Assembly: GCF_001677475.2 (NCBI RefSeq)
Contig: NZ_CP015229.1
Reading direction: 5' to 3' (one strand)
Length of the DNA: 64,000 nt
Source of the DNA: Escherichia coli
GTDB lineage: Bacteria > Pseudomonadota > Gammaproteobacteria > Enterobacterales > Enterobacteriaceae
Below, piece by piece: positions 45,207 to 62,855 of the stretch; positions within the stretch are counted from its first letter, which is position 1, and every line of letters starts with the position of its first letter. The notes under the pieces are model-generated. The model made no database searches, was not told where the DNA came from, and saw nothing but the letters and a program-made list of their open reading frames with translations. A program made the translations under genes and the position numbers.

Positions 45207-45689
45207 ATGTCAGGACCTCCGAAAACCCCGCCACGCCTGCATTTGATACGAGGCAACCCCTCAAAGCGCCCCGTTAAAGACCACAAAAAAACCGCTAAAA
45301 AGGATGAAAAAGGTCTTCCTAAAATTCCGCAGCATTTAGGGGCTCAGGGGAAGTACTGGTTCAGGCGAATGGCGGAAGAGCTGAATGCGGAAGGGATCAT
45401 TTCTCAGCTTGATGCGCGTGCACTCGAGTTGCTGGTGGAAGCCTACACCGAATATCGGCATCACTGCGAAACACTCGATGTTGAGGGGTATACCTACCGC
45501 ACGGAAACGCAGAGCGGTGATGTACTGATTAAGGCGCACCCCGCGGCGGCAATGAAAGCGGATGCCTGGAAGCGGATCCGGGCAATGCTTGCAGAGTTTG
45601 GTATGTCACCGGCAAGCCGGGCTAAAGTAAATATCGCCGGACCGGATGATGTTGATCCGCTGGCGGAGCTTTTAAAAGCGAGAGACTGA
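45207..45689 (+). CDS. Terminase small subunit (P27-family-like)
   Basis: 160 aa; homologous to the satellite TerS at 59601. Confidence 0.7.
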   Translation: MSGPPKTPPRLHLIRGNPSKRPVKDHKKTAKKDEKGLPKIPQHLGAQGKYWFRRMAEELNAEGIISQLDARALELLVEAYTEYRHHCETLDVEGYTYRTETQSGDVLIKAHPAAAMKADAWKRIRAMLAEFGMSPASRAKVNIAGPDDVDPLAELLKARD

Positions 45690-46716
45690 TGGCAAAAGTG
45701 GCTGACGGGATCCGCTACGCCGAACGTGTTGTTGCAGGAGAAATTGTTGCTGGCGAATTTGTCCGCCTGGCCTGCCAGCGTTTTCTTGATGATCTGAAGT
45801 ACGGCGAAGAGCGGGGGATTTATTTCAGTGAACCCCGTGCGCAGCACATCCTGAATTTCTACAAATTTGTGCCTCATGTAAAAGGGGCGCTGGCAGGCCA
45901 GCCCATTGAGTTGATGGACTGGCATGTATTTATTCTCATTAATATTTTTGGTTTTGTCATTCCGCTGGTCAATGAAGAGACCGGGGAAGTTGTCATGCGC
46001 AGCGATGGCAGTGGACGTCCGGTGATGGTGCGCCGGTTCCGGACGGCGTACAACGAAGTCGCTCGTAAAAACGCAAAATCAACTCTGTCATCGGGTATCG
46101 GCCTGTATATGACGGGGGCAGATGGTGAAGGCGGAGCTGAGGTGTATTCAGCCGCAACCACGCGTGACCAGGCCAGAATCGTGTTTGAAGACGCCAAAAA
46201 TATGGTCAGAAAAGCCCGGTCGACACTCGGGCGGTTGTTTGATTTCAACAAGCTGGCGATTTACCAGGAGCAGAGCGCATCAAAATTTGAACCGCTTTCT
46301 TCGGATGCAAACAACCTAGACGGTCTGAACATCCACTGCGCCATTATTGATGAGCTGCATGCACATAAAACCCGCGACGTGTGGGACGTTCTGGAAACGG
46401 CAACCGGTGCCCGTCTGCAGTCCCTGTTATTTGGTATCACCACGGCGGGCTTTAACAAGGAAGGGATTTGTTACGAGCAACGCGATTACGCCATCAAGGT
46501 ATTGCGAGGCTATAACAGCGACGTGGAGGGCGCGGTAAAAGACGACTCCTACTTTGCGATTATTTACACGCTCGATGAGGGAGATGATCCGTTTGATGAA
46601 ACGGTCTGGCAGAAAGCGAATCCGGGCCTGGGCATCTGTAAACGCTGGGATGATCTGCGTCGTCTGGCGAAAAAAGCGAAGGAGCAGGTCTCGGCGCGGG
46701 TGAATTTTTTCACGAA
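45689..46716 (+). pseudogene. Prophage terminase large subunit, N-terminal ~343 codons, interrupted by satellite insertion
   Basis: Aligns with satellite TerL N-terminus (PHVKGA..G.PIEL..W); frame runs into unrelated satellite DNA and stops at 46882. Confidence 0.8.
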
Positions 46717-46845
46717 GAAAGTAACATCACGCCGTAACAACAGTGCAGTCTGTCCTGATTTTTTTAGTAACCAAATGAAAGAAAAAGATTTTTTCTTGTT
46801 CGTCGTTTTTGTTTTTTCTGGATGGTTCTGGCTGTTTTCATCATT

Positions 46846-46867
46846 TGTGTATTGCACTGTGTATTGC
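46846..46867. repeat. Tandem GTGTATTGC repeats near satellite left end
   Basis: tgtgtattgcactgtgtattgc; near-identical copy at 62023-62043. Confidence 0.6.
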
Positions 46868-46887
46868 AAAAACGGGTTATAAATCAC

Positions 46888-48111
46888 ATGGCGCTAAACA
46901 AACTGAGCGATAAAAAACTTCGTTCCCTGCTTGGACGCAGGAGTGAGAGACAGGAAACCATCGCTGATGGTAACGGGCTTTCGGTACGGGTCAGTAAATA
47001 CGGATGTGTTAGTTTTGTTTTCTTTTACAGACTGGCGGGAAGGGGAACCGCGCCCATCTGGCTGACACTTGGAAAATATCCTGATCTGAGTCTCAAATCA
47101 GCGAGAGAGATGCGCGATCAGTGTCGAACCTGGCTTGCGGAGGGCAGAGATCCACGGATTCAGATAAAAATTGAACGGGAAGCCACCTTGCAACCTGTTA
47201 CCGTTCGTGAGGCACTTGAATACTGGCTTGATAATTATGCAATGGATAAGCGTAGGGGAGCAGAACATATCAGGCAGTGCTTTGGTAAACATATTTATCC
47301 GGTGATTGGTCATGTACCACTTAGTGATTGCTCTATATCTATGTGGATTAAGTGTTTTGACAAAATAAAAAAAGTAGCACCTGTACAGGCCGGAGCTTTG
47401 TTGCGTATATCAAAACAGGCGCTTAAATTTTGTAGGGTAAGAAAATACGCGATTAGTCATGAAATTGATGATCTTGAGGTCTGTGATGTGGGAAAAAAGT
47501 CTGCGCGAAGAAGCAGGGTTTTAACAGATGATGAAATCAGAGATTTATGGCGAAGTATTAATACTGATTATGACAATCACGAATTATCATATGAAAACCG
47601 AATTATTTTACGTTTCCTGGTAGTTTTTGGTTGCCGACTGTCAGAAGTATTACTGTCGTCCTGGGGAGAGTGGGATTTTGATAAGAAATTATGGCGCGTT
47701 CCCGCTGAACATAGCAAAAATGGCAGGGAAATAATCAGACCGATTCCTGATGGCATGTTTAACTGGTTAGTTACGTTAAAAAAAATAACAGGTAACAAAG
47801 AAAATGTGATTGGGTTTGATATGCGTCAGTGTACGGCAAGCGTAACTATCGGTAAGACATGGAAAAGGATGAAACACTCGGAGAAATGGACGGCGCATGA
47901 TATGCGAAGAGTGTTTGCCACAAAACTAAGTGATCATGGTTTTGAACATAATGTGGTTGAACAGTTGCTTGGGCACACATTAGGCGGTGTTGCCGGGGTT
48001 TATAACAGAAGCCAGTATATGGACAGAAAAAAAGAAGCTATGAACTGGTGGTACGACTATCTGAATAAGCAAATTAGTGGTGACGGTAATGATTCAAATA
48101 GTTACGCGTGA
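46888..48111 (+). CDS. int: P4-type tyrosine integrase
   Basis: 407 aa from MALNKLSDKKLRSLLGRR..GLSVRVSKYG (typical P4-family N-terminus); HDMRRVFAT...LGH...Y. Confidence 0.85.
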   Translation: MALNKLSDKKLRSLLGRRSERQETIADGNGLSVRVSKYGCVSFVFFYRLAGRGTAPIWLTLGKYPDLSLKSAREMRDQCRTWLAEGRDPRIQIKIEREATLQPVTVREALEYWLDNYAMDKRRGAEHIRQCFGKHIYPVIGHVPLSDCSISMWIKCFDKIKKVAPVQAGALLRISKQALKFCRVRKYAISHEIDDLEVCDVGKKSARRSRVLTDDEIRDLWRSINTDYDNHELSYENRIILRFLVVFGCRLSEVLLSSWGEWDFDKKLWRVPAEHSKNGREIIRPIPDGMFNWLVTLKKITGNKENVIGFDMRQCTASVTIGKTWKRMKHSEKWTAHDMRRVFATKLSDHGFEHNVVEQLLGHTLGGVAGVYNRSQYMDRKKEAMNWWYDYLNKQISGDGNDSNSYA

Positions 48112-48142
48112 AGAACTTGAAAATGATAAAACAATCGACAGG

Positions 48143-48310
48143 ATGATTAAGGAAGATGAATGTGCATGGTTAACCGCTCTTGGCAGGAGACACAGATCGT
48201 TACTTGAAAAGGAAGGAAAATTTCCACGAAAAATATGTATTGGTCCACAAACAAAAGTCTGGCGCTTATCTGAGGTGCTGGAATGGGTAAAAGGTGAATG
48301 GAAACCCTGA
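48143..48310 (+). CDS. AlpA-family DNA-binding protein, copy 1
   Basis: ORF 48077-48310; start at the internal Met (MIKEDECAWLTALG...); LSEVLEWV. Confidence 0.6.
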   Translation: MIKEDECAWLTALGRRHRSLLEKEGKFPRKICIGPQTKVWRLSEVLEWVKGEWKP

Positions 48311-48333
48311 GCTAAATTAAATGAGATATAATC

Positions 48334-48357
48334 AACCCGTCTTTTGGCGGGTTTTTT
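48334..48357 (+). terminator. Intrinsic terminator
   Basis: aacccgtcttttggcgggttttttt. Confidence 0.6.
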
Positions 48358-48373
48358 TATAGGTGATATTTTT

Positions 48374-48652
48374 ATGCAAAAATTTATTTATCCTACACCC
48401 GAAGAACGCATTCAGATTCTGAAAGATCATGGCGAACCGTATGATCGCCGTATACGCGAACATGAGTGTGCCAATCGTACCGGGCTTTCAAGAAGCAGAC
48501 GTTGGGTACTTGAACAGGAGGGAGCATTTCCTGCTCGTGCTCATTTAGGGAAAGTGTCTGTTTCCTGGTTGCTCTCTGATGTGCTCTGGTGGGTTATGCA
48601 TCCGCCAGGAGTAAAGGAAGTAAACAGCCCATACAAAAACGCCAATAAGTAA
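48374..48652 (+). CDS. AlpA-family DNA-binding protein, copy 2
   Basis: From MQKFIYPTPEER; ECANRTGLSRSRRWVLEQEGAFPA. Confidence 0.6.
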   Translation: MQKFIYPTPEERIQILKDHGEPYDRRIREHECANRTGLSRSRRWVLEQEGAFPARAHLGKVSVSWLLSDVLWWVMHPPGVKEVNSPYKNANK

Positions 48653-48660
48653 TTACCGAC

Positions 48661-48690
48661 AACCCCGCACCACGCAATGCGGGGTTTTTT
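48661..48690 (+). terminator. Intrinsic terminator
   Basis: aaccccgcaccacgcaatgcggggtttttt. Confidence 0.65.
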
Positions 48691-48706
48691 GTATGTGAGG
48701 TAGAAA

Positions 48707-49303
48707 GTGATGAATAAAAATATTGCCGTGACGGGCAAGGGTGACGCACGTCATGTGAAAAAATTCTGTGATATTCGTGATCTGGTCGTTCTGCGCTTTG
48801 ATAGTGTGAACGTTCGCGTGGTGTATCTGAACGGCGATCCGTGGTTTGTTGGCGCTGATGTGTGTGCGGCGCTGGAAATTAGCAACGTTACCGATGCTGT
48901 TTCAGTTCTGGATAACGATGAGGTAATGACCCTAGCTTTAACCGAGGGTCATTCAGGTAAGCGTGGTGGTGCCAGAAGTTGGAATGTTGTATCAGAATCA
49001 GGTTTTTACAAGTTGATCGCCAGAAGTCGCAAAGCTGTTAATCCTGGCACGTTCGCCCATCGTTTCAGTAATTGGGTATTCAGAAATGTGATACCGGGTA
49101 TCAGAAAAACGGGGGCTTATGGTATCCCGTGGGGCGCATTACAGGATTTTTCCCGCCGCAAAGAGCAATATCAGGTAAGTGCCAGCGAGAAGGGGAGGGA
49201 GCTACAGGCATGTAAGCGCAAAAAGCGTGAGCTAGAGGAAGAAGAAAAAAGGCTGATACGTGAATATCAGCCTGAGTTTTACTTTGGTGAGCGTATTCAG
49301 TAA
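48707..49303 (+). CDS. Bro-N domain protein (antirepressor-like)
   Basis: 198 aa; N-terminal ...VYLNGDPWFVGADVCAALEISNVTDAVSVLDNDE. Confidence 0.6.
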   Translation: MMNKNIAVTGKGDARHVKKFCDIRDLVVLRFDSVNVRVVYLNGDPWFVGADVCAALEISNVTDAVSVLDNDEVMTLALTEGHSGKRGGARSWNVVSESGFYKLIARSRKAVNPGTFAHRFSNWVFRNVIPGIRKTGAYGIPWGALQDFSRRKEQYQVSASEKGRELQACKRKKRELEEEEKRLIREYQPEFYFGERIQ

Positions 49304-49915
49304 CCACACGCGGTGCTGATTATACGGTACATCGTGTTAACCGAGAAGCTACCCACCAGCAAGGCAAAATCTTCTGCTAAAAAATGACATATGGCCAGTC
49401 GTCTGGAAAGCATGAAATTTTACAAAAATGGAAAATGAAGATTTTTATTGTGCTGGTGGGTAAAAACAAAAAGCGCCCCGTTGCCGGAGCGCCCTTGCGA
49501 ACAATTAACCTACTGCGCAAAAAAATGAATCTGTGCAGGGGGATTATATCAACCGTGTGACGAAGCGCCACAATTGCCGGATAACAGGCAAAGAAAAGGC
49601 CACCCGCTACGGTGGCCCTTCGACACAAGCTACACGTTATCCCCAACGCATGAGCGTCGCCAACAATGCCACATTTGCGGCTGGTGGGCAATGTGATCAG
49701 TGTGCTGGCTTGCTGGTGGGCTATTCCTGCTCTTTGGCCTTGCGTTGCTTTAGTGCTGCACGAGCTAATCAATCATTGTATATGAGGCGTGGAATCTTTT
49801 TTTCATCACTCCTGCATACACGCTCATTACTGACGTGTTCATTGCTGATGCAATTTCCCAGGAGGAAAGCAAATAAAAACAAAGAGCCAAGCCAGTATAG
49901 TACTTGCTGCATAAG

Positions 49916-50101
49916 TTATTCCTTATCTGATTCTTTGGTTTTTTTCCGTTGGCGGCGTTTGATCTCGCCACGCATGGCTGCGCTTATAAACTGCCCTGTA
50001 CTTTCGCCATCTTCTTTCACGTTTTCCATGCCTTCAATAATTTCATGGGCAATACGTGCAGTTACAGATTGTGATTTTGCATTCTTTGGACCTGTTGCCA
50101 T
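49916..50101 (-). CDS. Small putative ribbon-helix-helix regulator
   Basis: 61 aa from MATGPKNAKSQSVTARIAHEIIEG; GAGGGG RBS; divergent from rightward operon. Confidence 0.4.
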   Translation of the reverse strand: MATGPKNAKSQSVTARIAHEIIEGMENVKEDGESTGQFISAAMRGEIKRRQRKKTKESDKE

Positions 50102-50122
50102 GTCTAACCCCTCATGTTTTTG

Positions 50123-50204
50123 GTGTAAGACAATATACACGAAAAAAAACTATTTTAAAGGGTTGACGTGTAAGACACTGTTGTTTTATGTTGTGTCTTA
50201 CACC
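50123..50204. promoter_or_regulatory. Candidate operator array: three GTGTAAGACA(C) sites
   Basis: Sites at 50123-50132, 50168-50178 and inverted 50194-50204 (11-bp palindrome, 15-bp spacer) overlapping a TTGACG -35-like hexamer. Confidence 0.5.
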
Positions 50205-50300
50205 TTGAGTGTTCAAGGTTCAGAAACTGCGAAGCCCGTAGGTGCCGCTAACACCCACAGGCTTCTAACCACCAACGATAGTAATAGTATCGAGGCAGCT

Positions 50301-50504
50301 ATGAGAAATCATACCACACACCCGCAAGGGCGGGACTCGCACAACCTGAATAAATACATCTGGCGTTTTATCGCCCTGAGCACGGCACAACCGCGCGTAA
50401 TTCACATCGTGGCCACCAGCGAACAGGAAGCGCGTCAGCAATCTCCTGATGGCTGCGTGATGGTATTCGCCGCCCGTATTCGTCAGGGGTCACATCATGC
50501 GTAA
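50301..50504 (+). CDS. Small Icd-like/Ash-family-like protein, copy 1 (tentative)
   Basis: C-terminal WRF...ATSEQEARQQ...VFAARIRQG motif shared with the next ORF. Confidence 0.35.
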   Translation: MRNHTTHPQGRDSHNLNKYIWRFIALSTAQPRVIHIVATSEQEARQQSPDGCVMVFAARIRQGSHHA

Positions 50505-50790
50505 AAACCGCTTGCAAAAAATTATCACGGGACTGTATGCTTCCCGCGTCACCCACATGGTGACCGGGTTTGACAGCCTGAATACTACAGCGGACAGCCG
50601 CTTACATTCCGATATGCGGTTTTTTTGTGTCCGTAAACCTACCCATACCCGCATTATGGCGGGGCGTAACGGGGGAGCCTTTGCGCTCGCTGGTTCCTGT
50701 AGTGCCAGTCTGTCAACCCTGTTACGTCTCGCCACCATGTTTGACAGCGTAGTAGCGAGACTCCTTAATTTCACTACAGGAGCCTTTCAC

Positions 50791-50964
50791 ATGGCTGTAT
50801 CCACACGCCCTTATTTTGTCTGGCGCTTCATGCAGTGCCATGAAAAACAAACCTCACTCTTTACCGTCACGGCTGCCACTGAGCGCGAAGCACGCGCGCA
50901 GCTGCCGCACGCACATCTGATTTTTGTCGCCCGTATCCGTCAGGGGGTAAACCATGTTCAGTAA
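50791..50964 (+). CDS. Small Icd-like/Ash-family-like protein, copy 2 (tentative; may extend upstream to 50497)
   Basis: C-terminal VWRF...AATEREARAQ...IFVARIRQG. Confidence 0.35.
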   Translation: MAVSTRPYFVWRFMQCHEKQTSLFTVTAATEREARAQLPHAHLIFVARIRQGVNHVQ

Positions 50965-51625: not shown

Positions 51626-51630
51626 AAATA

Positions 51631-51930
51631 ATGAAACTTAAATATTCTGGCTTAACTGCCAGCGGCCCCGCTCGGCCTGAAATCCGTAACGGCGATATTT
51701 ACCGCGACCAGTACGGTGGCACGGTAATGATTAAGGGCGTGGCGGGACGGTGCGTTACCTACCGCCGTGAAGGTTACGAATATGACTGCGTGATGCCTGT
51801 TTATCAGTTCCGGCGTGATTTTTCTCTGGTACAGGCAGCGCAACGCGGTAAGCCCACCAGCAACGCCAGGGCACGTGCAAACATCCAGAAACTGAAAACC
51901 ATGATTAACGGATTCAGGGGTAAAAAATGA
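51631..51930 (+). CDS. Hypothetical protein
   Basis: 99-aa ORF upstream of the rep gene. Confidence 0.35.
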   Translation: MKLKYSGLTASGPARPEIRNGDIYRDQYGGTVMIKGVAGRCVTYRREGYEYDCVMPVYQFRRDFSLVQAAQRGKPTSNARARANIQKLKTMINGFRGKK

Positions 51931-53336
51931 AACTGGCACCGAACGTAAAACTATTACCGAAAGATAAGCACACAGAAGCGATTATTTTCGCGGGTGTTGA
52001 TGCTCACTCATTTGCAGAGCACTACATCATTGCACAGGCCAAAAAGGCGGGAGACCCGACGCCTCCCGTTTACCTGGGCCGTTATCAGTTAAGCGAACTG
52101 GATAACTTGCAGATTGTTGATGAGGGGCGGTACAGGGCGACAGTGATACGCGCCGGAAATATTGACGAAGCGCAGCTGCTAACCATCGCGACGAAACTGG
52201 CGATCGCCGGAGTCCAGGAAGCGCGGCTGCTTTCTGAAAATTTCGAATTGCTGGAGAAATGGACCGACCAGCTACCACGGTTGCGGGAGACATGGGAGAG
52301 AGGGGAAAGCCTGGTAATGGCAAAAAACCCCCAACGAAACACCACGCTACCGATGAGCGTTGGATCTGCCGGATACGACACGCAGCTGGATTACGTGGTT
52401 AAGGGCATTATTCCGGCGTCGTCGCTGTGCAGCATATACGGGGCGAGCGGTTCCTATAAATCATTCCTTGCGGGTTCGTGGGCGTGTCACGTTTCCACGG
52501 GCCGCCAGTGGGGAGGCCGCAGGGTTGCGCATGGTGCCGTTCTCTATGTGGTTGGTGAAGGCGGTATTGGTGTACCACGTCGTGTAAAAGCCTGGGAGGT
52601 TGTGCACGATGTACAGGTGAAAAATCTGTACCTGGTAAACCGCCCCGTCTTTCCGGCGGTCCCGCTTGATGTTGATGAAATGGTTATCGCTGCCCGTCAG
52701 GTGGAGCGGGAAACGGGTAAACCTGTACGCATGATTATTCTGGATACGCTGGCGCGTTGCTTTGGCGGCAATGATGAAAATGATTCCCGTGATATGGGGG
52801 CGTTTATCCGTGGGTGTGACGAACTGAAACGACGCACAGGGGCTACGGTGCTGGTGGTTCACCATTCCGGCAAGGATGAGACGAAAGGCGCGCGAGGTTC
52901 CAGTGCATTCCGTGCGTCACTGGATGCCGAATACCGGATACGCAGAGAGGACGCAGGAAGCGAGGCGCTGGTAATCTCATGTACCAAAATGAAGGACGCG
53001 GAGGAACTTAAAGAAGCCGCCTACGATTTGCGGGTGGTGGAGCTATTTACCGACGCTGACGGCGAATTAATTACGTCGCTGGTGGTGGTGGATAAGCCGC
53101 GTCCTCCCGTTGAACTGGAGCGCATCGAGGAGGCAGGCAACAAGACGGAAAACCATACCGCGTTATGGGGGTGCATCCGGTCGCGCACACAGAACGGTGA
53201 TAAGTGCACTATTGCGCTGTTACGTGACGATATGAAAAAGCTGGGGTATGAGATGAAGCACTTCAGCCGCTGGTTACGCAAGCTGGAAAAAGACGGGGTT
53301 ATTTATATCGACGGTGATGACGTAGGCACGCTGTAA
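51927..53336 (+). CDS. Replication protein: RepA-like RecA-fold helicase/ATPase with C-terminal DNA-binding region
   Basis: 469 aa; Walker A GASGSYKS, Walker B MIILD, HHSGKDETKGARGSSA; iterons immediately downstream. Confidence 0.7.
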   Translation: MKLAPNVKLLPKDKHTEAIIFAGVDAHSFAEHYIIAQAKKAGDPTPPVYLGRYQLSELDNLQIVDEGRYRATVIRAGNIDEAQLLTIATKLAIAGVQEARLLSENFELLEKWTDQLPRLRETWERGESLVMAKNPQRNTTLPMSVGSAGYDTQLDYVVKGIIPASSLCSIYGASGSYKSFLAGSWACHVSTGRQWGGRRVAHGAVLYVVGEGGIGVPRRVKAWEVVHDVQVKNLYLVNRPVFPAVPLDVDEMVIAARQVERETGKPVRMIILDTLARCFGGNDENDSRDMGAFIRGCDELKRRTGATVLVVHHSGKDETKGARGSSAFRASLDAEYRIRREDAGSEALVISCTKMKDAEELKEAAYDLRVVELFTDADGELITSLVVVDKPRPPVELERIEEAGNKTENHTALWGCIRSRTQNGDKCTIALLRDDMKKLGYEMKHFSRWLRKLEKDGVIYIDGDDVGTL

Positions 53337-53786: not shown

Positions 53787-54212
53787 ATGACGGCACAGAT
53801 AGCAGCTTACGGGCGGCTGGTGGAGGACCCGCAGGTAAAACAGACCAGCAAGGGAACACCCATGACGCTGGCGAGTATGGCGGTTCCCCTGCCATGCAGC
53901 CAGGCAGATGACGGAACGGCGACGATGTGGTTATCCGTCCTGGCGTTTGGCAGACAGGCCGACGCACTGGCAAAACACCGCAAAGGCGAACTGGTGAGCG
54001 TGGCGGGTAACATGCAGGTAAGCCAGTGGACAGGGCAGAACGGCGAAACGCGGCAGGGCTGGCAGGTTATTGCAGACAGCGTAATCAGTGCGCGAACGGC
54101 GCGACCGGGCGGCAAAAAAGGCCAACAGGGGCAGGCCACTGACGCACTGAACAGGGCAAAACAACAGACAGGCCAGCACGATGATCCGTACGGGGACGGG
54201 ATACCGTTTTAA
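53787..54212 (+). CDS. ssb: Single-stranded DNA-binding protein
   Basis: 141 aa; OB-fold-like N-terminus, Gly/Gln-rich linker, acidic tail ending DDPYGDGIPF. Confidence 0.7.
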   Translation: MTAQIAAYGRLVEDPQVKQTSKGTPMTLASMAVPLPCSQADDGTATMWLSVLAFGRQADALAKHRKGELVSVAGNMQVSQWTGQNGETRQGWQVIADSVISARTARPGGKKGQQGQATDALNRAKQQTGQHDDPYGDGIPF

Positions 54213-54811: not shown

Positions 54812-54842
54812 TGGCCTGGTATTTTCCAGGCCATTTTTTTTT
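54812..54842 (+). terminator. Intrinsic terminator
   Basis: ggcctggtattttccaggcc followed by T-run. Confidence 0.7.
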
Positions 54843-55314
54843 AGAAGTCGATCTCTGTATCGCGATTAAATTCATCGCTAAGGTAAAGTGCTTCGCTTGG
54901 GCATTTTCCGTTTTCCAGTAATGTTTCCCAGAAATCTTTATCGAAACACCCCTCAAGATACAGATAGCGGCAGATGTGAAGTAAATCACTTCGTGTCCAT
55001 CCGTGCATGCTGCTACTTGTTACACCATATTCACTTTCTAGTTTATAGAATGTGAGCGCCTCCCGGTCGTGCCAGGCTTTGCACAGACGATCGTATATCT
55101 TTTTAGCTTTGTTTTTAGATGTGCCGAAAAACTCTTCGTAAATTTCATGTGGGCGAGTAGGAATACTTCCGTCGCCATCCTGCAAGAAAGGATAAACATC
55201 TGCCTCCCAGGCATACACGTAAGAATCGCTGAACTCATCATAGTGTTTACCAAGGTGGAGAATCTGCAATCGTTGCTGAATGAACATTGCTTTTTTCAGT
55301 TCATTTTCTGACAT
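54841..55314 (-). CDS. Hypothetical 157-aa protein on the opposite strand (candidate accessory/cargo gene)
   Basis: Only minus-strand gene within the replication-packaging span; no family recognised. Confidence 0.5.
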   Translation of the reverse strand: MSENELKKAMFIQQRLQILHLGKHYDEFSDSYVYAWEADVYPFLQDGDGSIPTRPHEIYEEFFGTSKNKAKKIYDRLCKAWHDREALTFYKLESEYGVTSSSMHGWTRSDLLHICRYLYLEGCFDKDFWETLLENGKCPSEALYLSDEFNRDTEIDF

Positions 55315-55608: not shown

Positions 55609-56754
55609 ATGAAGAAATTAATCGAACTCCGCCAGCAAAAAACCGCCCTGAAAAACCAGATGCGATCCCTGCTGGAAAAAGCCGACAGTGAAAACCGCAG
55701 CCTGAACGATGACGAAGGCAAACAGTTTGATGAACTGCGTGCAAAAGCCGATTCCCTCGACACAGAAATCTCCCGTCTTGAAGCTGTTGCGGATGAAGAA
55801 CGTAACCAGCCAGGTGTTTGCGTCGAAGAGAAAATTACCAAAGACGAACTGCGCTCTTACATTCTGACCGGGGAAACCCGCAACCTGTCCGGCAGTGTTC
55901 CGGCTGATGGTGGTTATACGGTTATCCCGGAACTGAACAGAGAAATTATGCGTCAGCTTTCTGATGAATCGGTGATGCGTAAAATCTGTACTGTTAAAAC
56001 CATTCACAGCAATGAATTTAAGCAACTGGTTTCTGCCGGGGGCGCGGTCGTTGAACACGGTGAAGAAGGCACTACACGTAACCAGACGGCAACCCCAAAA
56101 CTGAATGAAGTCAGTATCCGCCTGTATCCGATCTACGCTTACCCGAAAACCACTCAGGAAATTATCGATTTTTCCGAAGTCGATATTATGGGCTGGTTAT
56201 CTTCTGAAATTGGCGACACTTTCGTTGATACCGAAGAAACGGATCTGGTTTCTGGTGATGGCGAGAAAAAAGCTAAAGGTTTCCTGGCTTTTCCGCGCAC
56301 TGAGGATAACGACAAAACCCGTCCTTTCGGTACGCTCCAGACGAAAAAAGTTACTGGCAGTCTTAGCGCCGACATGCTGATTGACCTGAAATTTACGCTG
56401 CGCAATAAGTACCGCAAAAAAGCTGTATGGGTGATGAACTCAAATACAGCCGCCTCCGCACAAAAACTGAAAAATGCCACTGGTGATTACATCTGGCGCG
56501 ATCGTTTACAGGCTGGTGATCCTGATTCTCTGCTGGGGCTTCCGGTTGAATATCTGGAATTTATGCCGGACGGTGTGATTGCAGTAGGTGACTTTAAGCG
56601 CGGTTATTTCATCGTTGACCATGAAACCGGTACGCGTACCCGTCCGGATTTCAGCGAACCTGGATTCATTAACATCTATACCCAGAAATATCTGGGCGGT
56701 GGTGTGGTGGATTCGAACGCCATCAAGATTCTGGAAATTCAGGCTGGCAAGTAA
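55609..56754 (+). CDS. Major capsid protein (HK97 fold)
   Basis: 381 aa; N-terminal coiled-coil delta region; hairpin after stop. Confidence 0.8.
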   Translation: MKKLIELRQQKTALKNQMRSLLEKADSENRSLNDDEGKQFDELRAKADSLDTEISRLEAVADEERNQPGVCVEEKITKDELRSYILTGETRNLSGSVPADGGYTVIPELNREIMRQLSDESVMRKICTVKTIHSNEFKQLVSAGGAVVEHGEEGTTRNQTATPKLNEVSIRLYPIYAYPKTTQEIIDFSEVDIMGWLSSEIGDTFVDTEETDLVSGDGEKKAKGFLAFPRTEDNDKTRPFGTLQTKKVTGSLSADMLIDLKFTLRNKYRKKAVWVMNSNTAASAQKLKNATGDYIWRDRLQAGDPDSLLGLPVEYLEFMPDGVIAVGDFKRGYFIVDHETGTRTRPDFSEPGFINIYTQKYLGGGVVDSNAIKILEIQAGK

Positions 56755-56803
56755 TGAGCAAAGGGGGCTTCGGCCTCCTTTTTCAGCTTTATGGAGTACA
56801 CCG

Positions 56804-57364
56804 ATGAAAAACACCGATTTTGAAATCCGTACATCTGAACTGACCGCCAGCGATAAAAAACTGGTGGGTTATGCCGTTCGCTGGAACAGCCTTTCAGAAA
56901 TTATTTGGGACGAATTCCGCGAACAGTTCACGCCGGGGGCTTTTGCTGACTATCTGGCGGCGGGTAATGATGTGCGCTGCCTGTATGAGCATGACTATAC
57001 CCGACTGCTGGGGCGCACCAAATCCGGAACACTGGTACTGACTGAGGACAACACCGGGCTACGTTTTGAACTGACACCGCCTGATACCCAGCTTGGAAAA
57101 GATGTGCTTACGCTGGTGGAGCGTGGCGACATTACAGGAATGAGCTTTGGCTTTCGCGCATTATGCGAAGAGTGGAATATCGCGCAAAAACCGTATCTGC
57201 GCACTGTTACCGCCGCAGAACTCCGTGAAATCACGATAACGTCGATGCCTGCTTATCCCGAATCTGGCGTGGAGATTGCCCACCGTTCGTTGTTTGCACA
57301 GCACCCTGAATTACGCCCGGCAGGAAATAATCGTCATCGCTGGGCTGAACTGGCGGGGTTGTGA
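56804..57364 (+). CDS. Prohead maturation protease (HK97 family)
   Basis: 186 aa from MKNTDFEIRTSELTASDKKLVGYAVRWNS. Confidence 0.75.
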   Translation: MKNTDFEIRTSELTASDKKLVGYAVRWNSLSEIIWDEFREQFTPGAFADYLAAGNDVRCLYEHDYTRLLGRTKSGTLVLTEDNTGLRFELTPPDTQLGKDVLTLVERGDITGMSFGFRALCEEWNIAQKPYLRTVTAAELREITITSMPAYPESGVEIAHRSLFAQHPELRPAGNNRHRWAELAGL

Positions 57365-57365
57365 T

Positions 57366-58580
57366 ATGTGGTGGCCTTTTAGTCGTAAAAAAAGCGATCT
57401 GCGTAACCTGTCCATTGATGATTTTCTGGCGCTGTCCGGCGTACCGAATACCGGATCCGGAGAATATGTTTCTGCCGGGACGGCTGAATCATTGCCTGCT
57501 GTGATGAACGCGGTTTCTGTCATCGCTGAGGCGGTGGCCACGATGCCGTGTTATCTGTATCTGGTACGCAATGATAAGGGCAGGGAGGCGCGGGAGTGGC
57601 TGGACAGTCATCCGGTCGATATTCTGCTGAATGAGCAGCCTAATTCGTGCCAGACACCTTACCAGTTTAAACGCACAATGATGCGTCACTGCCTGCTGAA
57701 CGGTAACGCCTATGCGGTTATTGAGTGGGGGCGGGACGGTCAGCCAAAATCACTTCATCCTTATGCGCCGGGGTGTGTTGTACCGGAACGCACTGGCGCG
57801 CACAAATACCGCTATACCATCACCGAACCCTATACAGGAACGGTGCGCACGTATTTACAGGAAGAAGTCCTGCATCTCCGCTATGCCTCGGATGATGGCT
57901 TTCTGGGACGTTCCCCCGTCACGATTTGCCGTGAGGCGCTGGGGCTTGGCCTTGCTCAACAGCGTCACGGAGCCAGCATTATGAAAGATGGCATGATGGC
58001 GGCAGGGATTATCACGTCAGGCGAATGGCTGGACGGTGTGAAAGGTAAACAGGCATTAGACGCCCTGGAACGCTACAAGGGGGCGAAAAATGCCGGAAAA
58101 ACGCCAATCCTTGAAGGGGGCATGGATTACAAGCAACTGGGGATGAGTAACCAGGATGCGGAATGGCTGGCCTCCCGTCGCTTCTCCATTGAAGACATCG
58201 CCCGGATGTTCAACGTGTCGCCGATTTTTCTTCAGGAATACAGCAACAGCACCTACAGCAATTTCAGTGAGGCAAGCCGCGCGTTTCTGACCATGACAAT
58301 GCGCCCATGGCTGGCGAACTTCGAACAGCAAATTAAGGCCGCTTTGCTGGTGGCTTCTCCCGTACCTGGTACCCGTTATCTGGTTGAGTTTGATTCAGCC
58401 GATTTACTGCGCGCTACTCCAACCGAGCGTTACGCCACGTATGAGAAAGGGATTAAGAACGGGATCATGAATCCGAACGAAGCCCGCGAACGTGAGGGGA
58501 TGCCGCCGCGTGAAGGTGGCGACGAATTCAGCCAGGCATGGAAGCAGACGGTGGAAATTAAAGGTGAAAAAGATGAGTGA
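57366..58580 (+). CDS. Portal protein (HK97 family)
   Basis: 404 aa from MWWPFSRKK; homologous to the prophage portal at 63049. Confidence 0.8.
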   Translation: MWWPFSRKKSDLRNLSIDDFLALSGVPNTGSGEYVSAGTAESLPAVMNAVSVIAEAVATMPCYLYLVRNDKGREAREWLDSHPVDILLNEQPNSCQTPYQFKRTMMRHCLLNGNAYAVIEWGRDGQPKSLHPYAPGCVVPERTGAHKYRYTITEPYTGTVRTYLQEEVLHLRYASDDGFLGRSPVTICREALGLGLAQQRHGASIMKDGMMAAGIITSGEWLDGVKGKQALDALERYKGAKNAGKTPILEGGMDYKQLGMSNQDAEWLASRRFSIEDIARMFNVSPIFLQEYSNSTYSNFSEASRAFLTMTMRPWLANFEQQIKAALLVASPVPGTRYLVEFDSADLLRATPTERYATYEKGIKNGIMNPNEAREREGMPPREGGDEFSQAWKQTVEIKGEKDE

Positions 58581-58872
58581 AGAAAAAATTACACCTGATG
58601 AAGTCAGGGCACATCTTCGCCTTGATGACTTTTCCGGAGAGGGCGAACTTCTGAAAATGTATACCGATGCGGCGCTGGAAGCCTGCCAGAAGCATATCGG
58701 GAAACGTTTTGAAGACGGCCTGGAATTTACCCCGGCAATACGTGTTGGTTGCCTGATGTACATTGCTTTCCTGTACGAGAACAGGGAAGCGGTTTCACCT
58801 GTGGAGCAGTCTGAACTGCCTATGGCTATTTCTGCGCTCTGGTCGGTTTATCGTGATGTGGGGGTGTACTGA
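58573..58872 (+). CDS. Head-tail connector/adaptor (gp6-like)
   Basis: 99 aa from MSEEKITPDEVRAHLRLDDFSGEGELL. Confidence 0.6.
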   Translation: MSEEKITPDEVRAHLRLDDFSGEGELLKMYTDAALEACQKHIGKRFEDGLEFTPAIRVGCLMYIAFLYENREAVSPVEQSELPMAISALWSVYRDVGVY

Positions 58873-59312
58873 TGCCGTGGCAACCATTAAGGCGATGCAC
58901 TGAGCCGGGCTGTAATAAGCGCGTGAAGTCCGGCAAGTGTGAAGAGCACAGGCGGGCTGCATGGCGTGCAGAGGATGCCAGACGGGGACACCGCCGCGCG
59001 CGCGGGTATTCCCGACAGTGGGACAAATACCGCGCCCTGTACCTGAGCAAAAACCCGTTATGCGTGCGTTGTCTGGCTAAGGGGATTTATACGCCAGCTC
59101 TTGTGGTGGATCACATCATTCCCATCAATGGCGGCGGTGATGTTCTCTTCTGGCCTGAGTGGAACCACCAGGCATTGTGCCAGACGTGCCACAACCGTAA
59201 GACGACACGGGAAGACCCAGCCACGAAAGCGAACCGTAAGGCGGGCATGTATCGCGAGCAGGAAGAACGGGCGGCACACCGTAACGACTGGATGTATGGC
59301 GATGATGACTGA
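58872..59312 (+). CDS. HNH endonuclease (terminase-associated)
   Basis: 146 aa; CVRCL...VDHIIPINGGG...CQTCHNRKT. Confidence 0.75.
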   Translation: MPWQPLRRCTEPGCNKRVKSGKCEEHRRAAWRAEDARRGHRRARGYSRQWDKYRALYLSKNPLCVRCLAKGIYTPALVVDHIIPINGGGDVLFWPEWNHQALCQTCHNRKTTREDPATKANRKAGMYREQEERAAHRNDWMYGDDD

Positions 59313-59481
59313 ACATGAGCAAAACAGGCTGATACGTGGACTGATAAGGCAACGTGACTTATGGAAGACACAGGAGACAGGGCACAAAGCCAACAGGACA
59401 GGGCGCACAGAACGCACCACAGCGAAGCGATTAACCGACCGTGACCGCGAGGTCATGGAATGTTTTCGCAATCGCTGGTGA
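59302..59481 (+). CDS. Hypothetical small basic protein
   Basis: ~59 aa Arg-rich ORF between HNH and terS. Confidence 0.3.
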   Translation: MMTEHEQNRLIRGLIRQRDLWKTQETGHKANRTGRTERTTAKRLTDRDREVMECFRNRW

Positions 59482-59600
59482 GGCTGTCAGAGGGGGTGGG
59501 GGAGGTTTTCAGGACGAAACCGTCCCTGCCGGACACCGACCGCCTCCTCAAATTTTTGTGCACGGTAATTTTTTTGAAAATAATTGGGCGAAAAAAGAAC

Positions 59601-59957
59601 ATGGCAAGACCACCAAAAGCCCCCGCTTACCTGGATGAAATCGCGGTCAGGCAGTGGAAGGAAAAATCGCGCCAGCTTTCCGTGCGGGAAGACCTTACCC
59701 CCGCCGACTGGAGCAATCTGGAACTGTATTGTGTTAACTACTCCATATACCGCAAAGCCGTCGAAGACCTTGCGACGCGCGGGTTCAGCATTGTTAACAG
59801 TCAGGGCAGCGAGAGCAGAAACCCCGCCCTGAGCGCAAAGGCTGACGCGGAAAGAATAATGATCAAAATGGCTTCTTTGCTGGGTTTTGACCCGGTAAGC
59901 CGCCGCAGAAATCCACCGGAAACAGAGGAAGAGGACGAGCTTGACCGCCTGGCATGA
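59601..59957 (+). CDS. Terminase small subunit (P27-family-like)
   Basis: From MARPPKAPAYLDEIAV; same M-x-x-PPK-xP start as prophage TerS. Confidence 0.7.
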   Translation: MARPPKAPAYLDEIAVRQWKEKSRQLSVREDLTPADWSNLELYCVNYSIYRKAVEDLATRGFSIVNSQGSESRNPALSAKADAERIMIKMASLLGFDPVSRRRNPPETEEEDELDRLA

Positions 59958-61602
59958 GTACGCAGAAGGCGTAAAAAACGGCAAAATTACGGCCTGTAAA
60001 CGACTGAAACAGGCCGTTAAACGGTATTTTTCTGACCTTGAAAACCCCCTTTACACGTTCGAGCCGGAGGTCGTGGAGCGGTTTATTGCCTTTTCCAGGG
60101 TGTGTCCGCACGTAAAAGGCGCAATGCGCGGTAGCCCCATTGAGCTGGAGCCGTGGCAGCAGTTCGCCTTTGCGTGCATCCTGGGCTTTAAGGTTAAGGC
60201 CACCGGACGGCGCAAATACACCAGCGCATTCATTGAAGTACCGCGTAAAAATGCCAAATCCACGGTCGCCGCTATCCTGGCTAACTGGTTTCTGGTTATG
60301 GAAAACGGGCAGCAGGATATTTACACCGCCGCCGTGAGTCGTGATCAGGCGCGGATCGTGTTTGATGATGCGCGTCAGATGTGCCTTTTATCCCGACCGT
60401 TACGAAAGCGGGTAAATATTCAGGCACACAAGGTGATACACCCGAAAACCAACAGCCTGTTAAAGCCACTGGCAGCAAAAGCGGCAACCATTGAAGGTAC
60501 AAACCCGAGTCTTGCTATTGTGGATGAATATCACCTGCACCCTGACAACGGGGTTTATTCCGCGCTTGAACTGGGAATGGGGGCGCGTCCGGAGGGGTTA
60601 TTATTTGCCATCACCACATCGGGGAGCAACGTTGTTTCAGCCTGTAAACAACACTACGACTATTGCTGCCAGATACTGGATGGTGAAGAGGTGAACGAAT
60701 CCATGTTCGTGCTGATTTACGAGCTGGATGATGAAAGCGAGGTTGACGATCCGGCGATGTGGATAAAGGCGAATCCCAATATCGATGTTTCCGTCGATCG
60801 TGAAAAACTGGCCTCAACCATCCAGAAAGCGCGGGGTATTCCGTCGCAGTGGGTGGAGATGCTCACCAAGCGATTCAATATCTGGTGTCAGGGGGCTACG
60901 CCGTGGATGGGTAACGGTGCATGGGCGGAGTGCGCCGGAACGTTCGCGGAGGCGGATTTATACGGGCAGGAGTGCTACGCGGGGCTGGACTTATCATCAA
61001 CCAGCGATATTTCCAGCGTGTGCTATGCCTTTCCGGTCGGTAAAAAGATTATGCTGGTTTCCCGTCACTATCTGCCGGAATTTCAGCTACAGAACCCCGC
61101 CAATAAAAACCGCGCCATCTATCGCCAGTGGGTAAAGGCGGGCTGGATACGCACAACACCGGGTGACTGCATTGATTATGACCGTATCCGTGATGACATC
61201 ATGGCGGATGCAGAGAATTTCAATATCAGGCTGGTGGGCTTCGATACATGGAACGCCACGCACCTGAGGACGCAGCTACAGGGCGCAGGATTTGAGGTGG
61301 AGCCGTTCCCGCAAACATACCTTCGTTTCAGTCCGGCGGCGAAATCGTTCGAAGTTTTTGTTAACCGGAAGGTGATTGTGCATCGTGGTGATCCGGTGCT
61401 GGCCTGGTCAATGAGTAATGTTGTGATGCAGAGTGACGCGAACGCCAATATCAAGCCGAACAAGAAAAAATCATCCAACAAGATAGACCCGAGCGTTGCG
61501 GCGCTGATGGCGTTTGGCACATTCCAGGCAGAGCATGAGGAATTTGCATTCGATATGAGCGACAGCCACAAAGAGCGGCTTGCGGCGTTTGATGGTGTGT
61601 AA
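59941..61602 (+). CDS. Terminase large subunit (intact, satellite-encoded)
   Basis: 553 aa; collinear homolog of the two prophage terL fragments. Confidence 0.85.
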   Translation: MTAWHEYAEGVKNGKITACKRLKQAVKRYFSDLENPLYTFEPEVVERFIAFSRVCPHVKGAMRGSPIELEPWQQFAFACILGFKVKATGRRKYTSAFIEVPRKNAKSTVAAILANWFLVMENGQQDIYTAAVSRDQARIVFDDARQMCLLSRPLRKRVNIQAHKVIHPKTNSLLKPLAAKAATIEGTNPSLAIVDEYHLHPDNGVYSALELGMGARPEGLLFAITTSGSNVVSACKQHYDYCCQILDGEEVNESMFVLIYELDDESEVDDPAMWIKANPNIDVSVDREKLASTIQKARGIPSQWVEMLTKRFNIWCQGATPWMGNGAWAECAGTFAEADLYGQECYAGLDLSSTSDISSVCYAFPVGKKIMLVSRHYLPEFQLQNPANKNRAIYRQWVKAGWIRTTPGDCIDYDRIRDDIMADAENFNIRLVGFDTWNATHLRTQLQGAGFEVEPFPQTYLRFSPAAKSFEVFVNRKVIVHRGDPVLAWSMSNVVMQSDANANIKPNKKKSSNKIDPSVAALMAFGTFQAEHEEFAFDMSDSHKERLAAFDGV

Positions 61603-61681
61603 CGGAATGGATGAGAGAGGACAATGCTCATTTAATGGAATAAATTTTCAGTATTACCGGCACCCACTTTCAGGGATGTTT

Positions 61682-61837
61682 TTGCGGGTTATTTGAGGGG
61701 TGTTTGCGGGTTATTTTGAATGTCTTGCGGGTTACATTCTGGCTGATATTTAAATACGTTGTTTTTTTAACGTATTGATATTAAAGAGTAAAAGATAATT
61801 AGCACGCGAAGATAACCCGCTAACCCGCATAACCCGC
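61682..61837. repeat. Symmetric repeat array near satellite right end
   Basis: Three direct TTGCGGGTTA and three inverted TAACCCGC copies flanking an AT-rich palindrome (aatacgtt...aacgtatt). Confidence 0.6.
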
Positions 61838-62022
61838 ACTGTTTTGTATATATATACGAAAAATTGCATTCAGGGGGGATCGAAATTTCTACTGCCTCTT
61901 ATCTCTTTGAGTGCTCACCTCGTCAGATTGTTACACACAAGAAATAAAAAATGCTTCGCGATGGTAGGTCGAATCACTGTATCAAAAAACGGTGTGTATC
62001 AGCATTAAAACAATACAGATAC

Positions 62023-62043
62023 GTGTATTGCGCTGTGTATTGC
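62023..62043. repeat. Tandem GTGTATTGC repeats near satellite right end
   Basis: gtgtattgcgctgtgtattgc, matching 46846-46867. Confidence 0.6.
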
Positions 62044-62118
62044 TCGATGATTTATAAAGACTGTTTTTTCATGTTAAACGATTGATATACAGACGATTTT
62101 AAAAAGCTTGAAATATTC

Positions 62119-62855
62119 TCACGAAACACATGAATGTGTGGGTCACTGCCGAATCGGCCTGGATGGACATGATTAAGTGGGAGAAGTGCGAATACATCGC
62201 TCCACAGCATGAGCTGAAAACGTATCCCATGTGGGTCGGCGTCGACCTTGCACATAAGATTGATATCTGTGCGGCGGCAAAACTCTGGCGAACGGATAAC
62301 GGGCATGTTCATGCCGATTTTAAATTCTGGCTTCCGGAAGGGCGACTGGAACGGTGTTCACGGCAGCAGGCAGAACTTTACCGGAAGTGGGCGGAGATGG
62401 ATAAGCTCATCCTGACGGATGGTGATGTTATCGATCATGCTCAGATAAAAAGTGACTTACTGGAATGGATTGGTGGTGAAAACCTCAGGGAACTGGGATT
62501 TGACCCGTGGAGCGCGATGCAGTTCAGCCTGGCACTGGCTGAAGAAGGGATACCGCTGGTGGAGGTTCCGCAGACGGTCCGCAATCTGTCAGAGGCCATG
62601 AAGGAAACGGAATCACTGGTCTATGCCGGACGTTTCCACCACAGCAATCACCCGGTCATGAACTGGATGATGTCTAACGTTACGGTGAAACCGGACAAAA
62701 ACGACAATATCTTCCCGAATAAATCCACGCCGGAAGCCAAAATCGACGGCCCTGTTGCGATGTTTACAGCAATGAGCCGGATGCTGGTCAATGGCGGTGA
62801 ACCGGAGCCGGATCTGTCTGAACACCTGATCAGTGTTGGTATCCGCTCGCTTTAA
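62119..62855 (+). pseudogene. Prophage terminase large subunit, C-terminal ~245 codons (resumes after satellite)
   Basis: LTKHMNVWVTAESAWM aligns with satellite TerL LTKRFNIWCQGATPWM. Confidence 0.8.

Follow-up and report, generated by a model that had tools for sequence, protein, structure and literature searches.

A 64,000-nt stretch of Escherichia coli DNA (the window) contains a lambdoid prophage whose large terminase gene, terL, is broken into two pieces that stand more than 15 kb apart, which raises the question of what lies between the pieces, whether the gene can be restored, and what the arrangement means for the two elements involved.

The interrupted terminase gene and its in-silico repair

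The prophage, hereafter the helper, begins beside yccA and is interrupted within its packaging module:

23726–24385, host yccA, beside the helper integrase
24793–25812, - strand, helper lambdoid prophage integrase at the left prophage end, adjoining yccA (from the ORF list)
44708–45058, + strand, helper HNH endonuclease of the cos-packaging module (phrog_144, E=1.2e-41)
45207–45689, + strand, helper small terminase (TerS), P27 family (phrog_83, E=2.5e-55)
45689–46716, + strand, helper terL 5' fragment, codons 1–342, with the ATPase domain and the beginning of the nuclease domain
62126–62855, + strand, helper terL 3' fragment, codons 343–585, with the remaining nuclease domain (from 62119 if the attR core is counted)
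63049–64000, + strand, helper portal gene, stop-free to the window end, its position matching the portal CDS of locus L001

Window positions 19000–29520 gave a 95% alignment with locus L002, in which these positions are annotated as yccA and a tyrosine integrase. The window covers the left 21 kb of the helper and the first 1.9 kb of its right part, with the tail genes outside, and the integrase, exonuclease, replication, Q, lysis, HNH, TerS, and portal reading frames are all open. The prophage region matches E. coli at only ~92%, which could point to an Escherichia host other than E. coli; that reading is rejected, since the host backbone (window 1–12000) is 99.0% identical to E. coli and the lower value reflects prophage mosaicism.

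Joining 45689–46716 to 62126–62855 in silico yielded 1758 nt, divisible by three, encoding a 585-aa TerL with TerL_ATPase at residues 112–268 and TerL_nuclease at 283–563. The split falls between codons 342 and 343, at about position 61 of Pfam TerL_nuclease (one of the models into which the former Terminase_1 is now divided), and neither half carries a stop or frameshift. The repaired protein matches the TerL that E. coli ATCC 43886 encodes in an annotated, unbroken gene at 582 of 585 residues without gaps (99.5%), and is collinear with the TerL encoded by the insert itself (32% identity over 567 columns, gap-free across the junction). The original prediction that the fragments are collinear with the second TerL and join in frame is thereby borne out, as is its claim that excision would restore the gene: the alignments support the view that precise excision would rebuild a TerL 99.5% identical to uninterrupted ones. 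The junction had been written as NFFTK|KHMNVWVT; its frame is right, but the residues are NFFTK|HMNVWVT, with one K instead of two.

In the integrated state the 5' reading frame continues for 55 codons into the insert and ends at 46882, so that it encodes 397 aa comprising the ATPase domain and a tail contributed by the satellite. On the right side, a nuclease-domain reading frame has an ATG start four bases past the att core.

Gene content of the insert

The insert was predicted to be a 15.4 kb satellite that begins with an integrase gene, and its annotation agrees: int and AlpA genes are followed by a head module, with no tail or lysis genes.

[quoted passage not shown]
46888–48111, + strand, tyrosine integrase, 407 aa (phrog_1, E=8.6e-58)
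48077–48310, + strand, first AlpA-family regulator/excisionase (Pfam Phage_AlpA, 2.4e-09)
48374–48652, + strand, second AlpA-family regulator/excisionase (Pfam Phage_AlpA, 7.2e-10; phrog_2790, 2e-34)
48707–49303, + strand, Bro-N/anti-repressor-like protein, Bro zone (phrog_2593, 6.3e-78)
50652–50739, + strand, C4 antisense RNA, P4 CI-type immunity RNA (Rfam RF01695, 72.3 bits; gathering score 45)
51927–53336, + strand, replication protein, RepA-family helicase/primase-like (phrog_2850, 3.2e-224; phrog_906, 3.8e-53)
53787–54212, + strand, single-stranded DNA-binding protein, SSB (phrog_44; TIGR00621 at 63.6 bits, above cut-off)
55609–56754, + strand, major capsid protein, HK97 type (phrog_10, 5e-85)
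56801–57364, + strand, prohead protease (phrog_80, 1.4e-60)
57366–58580, + strand, portal protein (phrog_12, 6.6e-119)
58570–58872, + strand, head-tail adaptor/connector (phrog_40, 5.1e-28; TIGR01560 above cut-off)
58872–59312, + strand, HNH endonuclease (phrog_144, 3.6e-45)
59601–59957, + strand, small terminase, P27 family (phrog_83, 1.2e-37; TIGR01558 above cut-off)
59941–61602, + strand, large terminase, intact, 553 aa (phrog_9, 4.2e-180)
61682–61838, no strand, iteron-like cluster

These genes form four zones in the order Int-AlpA-AlpA, Bro with C4 RNA, replication with SSB, and late genes; int, alpA, and the replication genes all lie on the + strand, in the direction of terL. The homologous CDS of the replication gene in L001 is annotated as a helicase RepA family protein. 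The iteron-like cluster, comprising three direct TTGCGGGTTA copies 21–22 bp apart, an AT-rich spacer, and three inverted copies, is probably the replication origin, and the same iterons stand immediately 3' of the primase gene in two chromosomal cfPICIs (L004, L005). A PHROG profile search detected no tail, holin, or lysin gene among the satellite ORFs and no match there to P4 sid, psu, delta, alpha primase, or epsilon; the features common to P4 are limited to the integrase type, AlpA, and the C4 RNA. For defence genes, PADLOC returned two marginal matches (E ~7e-4) involving the first AlpA-like protein, which we did not credit.

The cfPICI core list consists of int, regulator, primase-replicase, capsid, protease, portal, head-tail adaptor, head-tail connector, HNH, terS, and terL. 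SatelliteFinder accepts 9–11 of these components, and 10 of 11 are present here as counted from profile matches, with a single adaptor/connector gene where the prototype cfPICI has two and, as in that family, with no tail or holin genes among the island ORFs (PHROG). At the DNA level the late module shares 97% identity with its counterpart in a chromosomal cfPICI at yifB and 81% with an O157:H7 element between roxA and phoQ, which we take to be EcCIEDL933. EcCIEDL933 is the cfPICI prototype (Alqurainy et al. 2023, as summarised in PMC10085698). The present element shares int, AlpA, replication gene, capsid, protease, portal, connector, HNH, TerS, and TerL with cfPICIs, yet those occupy chromosomal-gene sites and meet their helpers in trans, whereas here an integration module of the HE-PICI clade places the island within a prophage gene. 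As judged by its gene content, the late module is of the capsid-forming type, a small addition to the published account, and suggests a cfPICI lifestyle in which the island would make its own small capsids and take only tails from a helper.

Site class and recurrence of the insertion

The original prediction left open whether this target had been reported. It has: the element, its site, and the 7-bp crossover have been known since 2023. HE-PICIs were described by Tommasini, Mageeney, and Williams (2023, NAR Genom Bioinform, PMC10111431), whose site class A:Terminase_1:246 comprises 15–16 kb elements of E. coli and E. albertii with the att identity tcacgaa (or ttaccaa). The element analysed here has TCACGAA at the FTK codons of an HK97-type TerL, at both ends:

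46710–46716, + strand, attL core TCACGAA, the crossover identity block, equal to the published tcacgaa of A_Terminase_1_246
46846–46868, + strand, doubled motif tgTGTATTGCacTGTGTATTGCa, an attP arm site whose first half-site begins 135 bp downstream of the core centre
62022–62044, + strand, second doubled-motif copy cgTGTATTGCgcTGTGTATTGCt, whose first half-site begins 98 bp upstream of the core centre
62119–62125, + strand, attR core TCACGAA, equal to the published att identity

The predicted short flanking repeat is thus this exact 7-bp block. The doubled TGTATTGC motif is a published hallmark of HE-PICI attP sites (PMC10111431), and its pattern tgTGTATTGCantgTGTATTGCa has exactly two matches in the 64-kb window, both on the + strand, where 0.01 would be expected. 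The distances of 98 and 135 bp recur exactly in a second terL-embedded copy and lie within 2.5 bp of those of 11capE measured likewise (100.5 and 133.5). As in other HE-PICIs, the island sits inside a prophage late gene and disrupts it without a replacement sequence in attP, its key genes are co-oriented, the two doubled motifs are co-oriented at fixed distances, and the four zones are ordered. The integrase is 50% identical to that of 11capE over 396 aa (E=4e-143, full length), which by sequence similarity places it with the 11capE-related clade, and its attL flank fits the subclade of the site group.

Compared with the published members of A:Terminase_1:246, the element agrees in target gene and codon, 7-bp identity, size, species, and doubled arm motif, and its attL and attR sequences, int upstream region included, are near-identical; nothing of substance differs, and the window holds a further copy. 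Its order Int-AlpA-AlpA...capsid-protease-portal-connector-HNH-TerS-TerL is the gene profile of the sister class A:Terminase_1:132 (PMC10111431). In the Bro and replication zones it departs from the copy carried by strain 2014C-3075 (85–91% identity or no match), as expected given that the authors call HE-PICI middle zones dynamic (PMC10111431). The founding HE-PICI, 11capE in prophage 50icd of E. coli NRG857c, also has an AlpA homologue and similar spacing of the arm motifs, lies co-oriented within a late gene with no replacement sequence, and carries a homologue of the gene it interrupts. It differs in that it targets the capsid gene E, measures 11 kb, lacks TerS, TerL, and portal, and presumably relies on its helper for heads and cos machinery (PMC10111431), whereas the element here targets terL and carries a complete head and packaging set.

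The satellite's own terL had been predicted to differ in DNA at the homologous site and so to escape as a target. The difference is real (22 of 36 bases), yet the core TCACCAA departs from TCACGAA at only one base of seven; it is plausible that this gene would not serve as a target.

The original prediction had suggested searching for an uninterrupted attB, and with the in-silico attB (267 nt) an empty terL site was identified in 11 phage records and, among 5426 complete E. coli genomes, in ~901. The attL junction recurs in 35 complete, independent genomes and the attR junction in 33 of them or others like them, which excludes chance or misassembly; the helpers occupy varying chromosomal positions, and the source strain of the window is absent from the genome set searched. 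The junction-bearing genomes come from humans, pigs, cattle, poultry, and water. All 35 complete genomes that bear the integrase have it abutting a terL fragment (38 places), with no off-target copy in this collection, in agreement with the predicted site-specificity. Rare off-target HE-PICI events, e.g., in yeaN, have been recorded (Tommasini et al. 2023, PMC10111431).

Proposed mechanism and competing readings

The window very probably represents another HE-PICI copy of class A:Terminase_1:246, working as follows. The tyrosine integrase would recombine the TCACGAA of attP with the same heptamer in the nuclease-domain coding region of terL, in an HK97-like lambdoid prophage beside yccA. The island is co-oriented with the late operon, and therefore the helper's packaging ATPase/nuclease would stay in two pieces until the island leaves. 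Experiments on 11capE demonstrated an order of events in which excision and replication of the helper-satellite composite precede a precise excision of the satellite (PMC10111431). By analogy with that pair, the only one for which this order is demonstrated, SOS induction would derepress the helper, and the composite would excise and replicate. Q-antiterminated late transcription might then extend from the lysis genes across HNH, terS, and the 5' half of terL and reach satellite int and alpA; no terminator-like site was found on the + strand between the 5' half and int. Int and AlpA would finally excise the island precisely, giving the intact 585-aa TerL. Since TerL would be rebuilt only at island excision, we propose that helper packaging is delayed and reduced. 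Excision, replication, particles, and dependence on the resident prophage are accordingly predictions for the present copy, and Tommasini et al. did not recover virions from the 11capE/50icd model pair (PMC10111431).

The split gene might instead be a plain pseudogene without regulatory meaning, left by an island unable to excise from a defective helper. Many HE-PICI helpers look truncated according to Tommasini et al. (PMC10111431), the helper's tail region lies beyond the window, and PGAP labels both terL halves as pseudogenes in related genomes, but such a stranded insertion is unlikely in view of the near-perfect, stop-free terL halves, the open helper genes listed above, and a satellite that retains undamaged int and AlpA genes, attL/attR cores, and arm motifs. 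A different possibility is that the satellite TerL, with its TerS and HNH, replaces the interrupted one and leaves the helper unimpaired during integration. The idea that captured late genes act as an intact backup was put forward by Tommasini et al. (PMC10111431), and helper and satellite each have a TerL of phrog_9 and a packaging module of the HNH/P27-TerS type. Satellite and helper have no blastn match at E<=1e-3, however, and their proteins are only 41% (HNH), 27% (TerS), 32% (TerL), and 31% (portal) identical, so that shared cos, TerS, and portal specificity is unlikely and recent capture of the packaging genes from this helper is rejected; moreover, the 97%-identical head module resides in a chromosomal cfPICI unrelated to the resident prophage. 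The backup reading has only a slim chance of being right.

The full head and terminase set and the P4-family-type integrase could also suggest a small defective prophage or P4-like element, and prophages that integrate into prophages are known in E. coli (PMC8112680). This is very improbable for an element of 15.4 kb without tail, holin, or lysin genes or a homologue of P4 sid, psu, or delta among its ORFs, in which the inward-pointing int, two AlpA genes, Bro zone, and C4 RNA follow the published distinction between PICIs and prophages.

Within the preferred reading of an HE-PICI, an island with its own capsid, protease, portal, adaptor, HNH, TerS, and TerL should build and fill its own heads and therefore need only the helper's tails and lysis. 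One could go further and regard terL-embedded HE-PICIs as head-autonomous, tail-stealing cfPICI hybrids whose integration site is itself the interference mechanism, a speculation that we consider rather unlikely. If it were true, the satellite could do without every head and packaging protein of the helper, and the cut in terL, the one gene without which no helper DNA is packaged, would block the helper in cis while read-through late transcription still supplied tail and lysis functions. The ATPase-domain and nuclease-domain fragments of TerL, as stable proteins, might in addition be dominant-negative. Tommasini et al. (PMC10111431) record the gene content and do not discuss this logic, and the cfPICI literature within reach of our search makes no mention of embedded copies.

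Residence inside an essential late gene of the helper would turn parasitism in trans into a switch in cis, in which helper packaging waits for the satellite's exit and the integrated satellite is passively replicated and transcribed by the helper. Regulated gene integrity, or active lysogeny, is alike in that an integrated element keeps a gene in pieces and, by leaving precisely at a set time, makes it whole again, as with skin and SPbeta of B. subtilis and phi10403S in comK of Listeria. In the present case, by contrast, the split gene is that of a second mobile element, and the satellite instead of the cell benefits from the switch. Tommasini et al. likewise compare HE-PICIs with regulated gene integrity (PMC10111431). 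Because the idea, site, and sequences were published in 2023, the window adds only another instance and the cfPICI-type late module. The idea is relevant to phage-satellite conflict and to prophage annotation: in related genomes PGAP calls both terL halves pseudogenes, and the prophage is scored as defective. One related genome has an Stx1d prophage as the carrier.

The split terminase gene and its integration site

The ORF map places the two parts of the helper terL on either side of ~15.4 kb of genes that run in the same orientation as terL.

Helper terL and the borders of the island
45689-46882, +, helper terL 5' ORF, 397 aa
62130-62855, +, helper terL 3' ORF, 241 aa
46710-46716 (core), left border, attL, gtgaatttttTCACGAAgaaagtaac
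62119-62125 (core), right border, attR, gaaatattcTCACGAAacacatgaatg
in silico, satellite attB junction (repaired terL), ...GAATTTTTTCACGAAACACATG...
in silico, satellite attP junction, ...AATATTCTCACGAAGAAAGTAAC...

Joining 45689-46716 to 62126-62855 yields 1758 nt encoding an uninterrupted 585-aa protein, the repaired TerL, which can be aligned over its whole length with the 553-aa TerL of the island (32% identity) and without gaps at the junction (FFTK followed by HMNVW, opposite MLTK RFNIW). This bears out the claim that the terL fragments are collinear and in frame; the junction string first proposed carried one K too many, and the rest of that description was exact. Pfam assigns TerL_ATPase to residues 112-268 and TerL_nuclease to residues 283-563 of the repaired protein, so that the break at 342/343 falls within the nuclease domain. 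Both halves are still expressible ORFs (45689-46882 and 62130-62855): the predicted 397-aa N-terminal product would comprise the ATPase domain plus 55 residues encoded by the satellite, and the 241-aa nuclease-domain ORF begins at an in-frame ATG four bases past the attR core.

In a search for uninterrupted homologues of the reconstructed gene, 901 of the 5426 complete E. coli genomes contained the 267-nt in silico attB intact (best identity 98.9%). So did 11 phage records, among them Evi, phi467 and PhiR49_2, where the matches are always annotated as large terminase. Against the TerL annotated in E. coli ATCC 43886, the repaired TerL is identical at 582 of 585 positions, gap-free, and the terL of that strain likewise lies in an HNH-TerS-TerL-portal context. 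Because uninterrupted homologues exist and the fragments are collinear and in frame, the insertion within terL stands as first described.

Occupied sites are far rarer, amounting to ~0.65% of complete genomes and roughly 4% of the carriers of this terL family. Thirty-five complete genomes contain the whole attL junction (terL 5' half plus integrase), and 33 contain the attR junction. The strains, E. coli 042 among them, come from humans, pigs, cattle, poultry and water, and the position of the prophage on the chromosome varies. The satellite left end and integrase gene, used as a query, recovered the same 35 genomes at 38 places, and a terminase large subunit underlies every integrase match listed, in agreement with the proposed site specificity. 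Two integrase copies each are present in NZ_CP122620.1 (ETEC4090), NZ_CP128979.1 (TUM1881) and NZ_CM135183.1 (Z1324SEC0014). The best-matching attL and attR junctions of ETEC4090 lie ~149 kb apart, which suggests that two prophages each hold an embedded island or that the two have rearranged with each other. In the satellite's own terL, the segment homologous to the site (60856-60891) matches attB at only 14 of 36 bases, and its core reads TCACCAA, one base from TCACGAA and one base from the published alternative TTACCAA; given these divergent flanks and the overlap mismatch, immunity from self-integration is plausible.

Island gene content and the published helper-embedded PICIs

Features of the island
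46888-48111, tyrosine integrase
48077-48310 and 48374-48652, two Pfam Phage_AlpA proteins
48707-49303, Bro-N / anti-repressor-like protein
50652-50739, +, C4 antisense RNA, P4 CI-type immunity RNA (Rfam RF01695, 72 bits)
51631-51930, small protein, phrog_285
51927-53336, RepA-family helicase/primase-like protein
53787-54212, SSB
54841-55314, -, 157-aa ORF, the only sizeable minus-strand ORF of the island
55609-61602, major capsid, prohead protease, portal, head-tail adaptor, HNH, P27-type TerS, TerL
61682-61838, iteron-like cluster, 3' of the satellite terL

Because the island ORFs supply head and packaging functions and include no tail, holin or lysin homologue, the insert is, by gene content, a satellite rather than a prophage. 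The C4 RNA lies in a largely non-coding stretch of ~2.3 kb (49.3-51.6 kb) where other ORFs are implausible, and the small phrog_285 protein aligns at 85% with a gene annotated as DUF4222 in L001, the corresponding locus of E. coli 2014C-3075. The 157-aa ORF, which has no PHROG, NCBIfam or PADLOC match, may have an accessory or cargo role; its slot, at the boundary of the replication and late zones, is variable and holds ProQ/FinO in L001 and in the chromosomal capsid-forming PICI (cfPICI) L004, and PerC in a second such element, L005.

Tommasini, Mageeney and Williams described 491 helper-embedded PICIs (HE-PICIs), which occupy 14 sites; the genes hit are cognates of nine late genes of lambda, among them gene A, the large terminase (2023, PMC10111431). 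In a supplementary entry, their class A_Terminase_1_246 comprises E. coli and E. albertii elements of 15-16 kb with att identity 'tcacgaa' or 'ttaccaa', and the attL and attR printed for it nearly equal ours base for base. The HE-PICI hallmark, a doubled motif tgTGTATTGCantgTGTATTGCa at fixed distances either side of the attP centre (PMC10111431), has exactly two matches in the window (46848-46867 and 62024-62043, both +; chance expectation 0.01). Relative to the core centre, the first half-sites begin 98 bp on the upstream side and 135 bp on the downstream side. By the same measure, the founding element 11capE gives 100.5 and 133.5, and the terL-embedded island of 2014C-3075 gives 98 and 135. 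The integrase shares 50% identity with that of 11capE across its full length, and the island gene order fits the four-zone scheme of the 2023 paper. It also agrees with A_Terminase_1_132, the one terL-targeting class profile compared (Int, AlpA, AlpA, Bro, Primase, SSB, capsid, protease, portal, connector, HNH, TerS, TerL; PMC10111431). From these matches in class, core, att flanks, motif, integrase and gene order, it follows that this type of element, its site and its sequence had already been described, and that the window adds one more instance; the phenomenon is also cited in one satellite survey and one review.

The C-terminal part of the integrase (residues 275-406) matches positions 690-811 of the PHROG TerL profile phrog_9 (E=5e-25). 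This match likely stems from terminase/integrase fusion ORFs miscalled at attL junctions and taken into PHROG; one element in the supplementary list is marked 'reannotate terminase/int fusion' (PMC10111431).

A capsid-forming late module in an embedded satellite

Judged on sequence, the island late module is that of a cfPICI. Of 5426 genomes, 537 carry it, 138 of these with at least 95% identity, whereas this integrase occurs in only 35. O157:H7 strains carry an 81% identical module between roxA and phoQ, and in E. coli O169:H41 a 97% identical module is part of a chromosomal element that interrupts yifB and whose integrase and primase are unlike those of our island. The cfPICI L004 of O169:H41 2014EL-1345-2 (2955-19523) splits this host gene (encoding a comM-like Mg-chelatase ATPase), another case in which the target is disrupted and the lost part not replaced.

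An intact TerL inside a split terL could be read as a recent copy of the helper gene or as its stand-in. Helper and satellite have no detectable similarity at the DNA level, and their proteins are only distantly related (HNH 41%, TerS 27%, TerL 32% and portal 31% identity), a divergence that makes either role unlikely for the satellite TerL. The element looks like a cfPICI chassis joined to an HE-PICI integration module; it should need only tails and lysis from its helper, whose packaging would be disabled by the place of insertion. Such hybrid logic is not discussed in the 2023 paper, although the gene content is recorded there (PMC10111431); we regard this point as an increment and not as a new kind of system.

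The iteron-like cluster consists of three direct copies of TTGCGGGTTA at 21-22 bp spacing, an AT-rich spacer of ~70 bp and three inverted copies; TGCGGGTTA occurs in exact form five times in the window, each time within 61682-61838. The same iterons follow immediately after the DUF927 primase gene in L004 and L005, the usual position of a PICI ori, and the right end of L004 holds another such cluster. No such iterons adjoin the RepA-type replication gene of the window's element, which differs in replication protein from the DUF927-primase elements L004 and L005.

Predicted excision and the helper prophage

After mitomycin C, the composite of 11capE and its helper prophage 50icd excises and replicates first, as followed by qPCR and deep sequencing, and precise satellite excision follows at 2-3 h (PMC10111431). 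The authors argue that the interrupted late gene is not expressible before the satellite excises, and that helper late transcription runs into the co-oriented island (PMC10111431). Here, the helper Q gene (40258-41079), lysis genes, HNH, TerS and the terL 5' half lie upstream of the island and are co-oriented with it. We detected no + strand terminator-like site from the terL fragment to int, the first ones following the AlpA genes, and none at the right junction. This anatomy fits the 11capE scheme, under which the helper-satellite composite would excise and replicate, and precise exit of the satellite would then leave a repaired terL. In L001 (2014C-3075, NZ_CP027447.1; 13823-15049 and 19173-36011) the island-bearing prophage also encodes Stx1d; since the island splits its terL, this prophage would be packaging-incompetent until the satellite excises.

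Over window 1-12000, the host backbone shares 99.0% identity with E. coli. The helper prophage begins beside yccA, with its integrase at 24793-25812 and a complete-looking early region; its portal gene is open and runs off the window end, and the tail region lies beyond the window. Two tRNA genes follow the Q antiterminator and precede the lysis genes.

Helper tRNA genes
42380-42455, +, tRNA-Met (CAT)
42555-42631, +, tRNA-Arg (TCT)

A related prophage, also associated with yccA (L002), carries tRNA-Thr and tRNA-Gly at the equivalent position.
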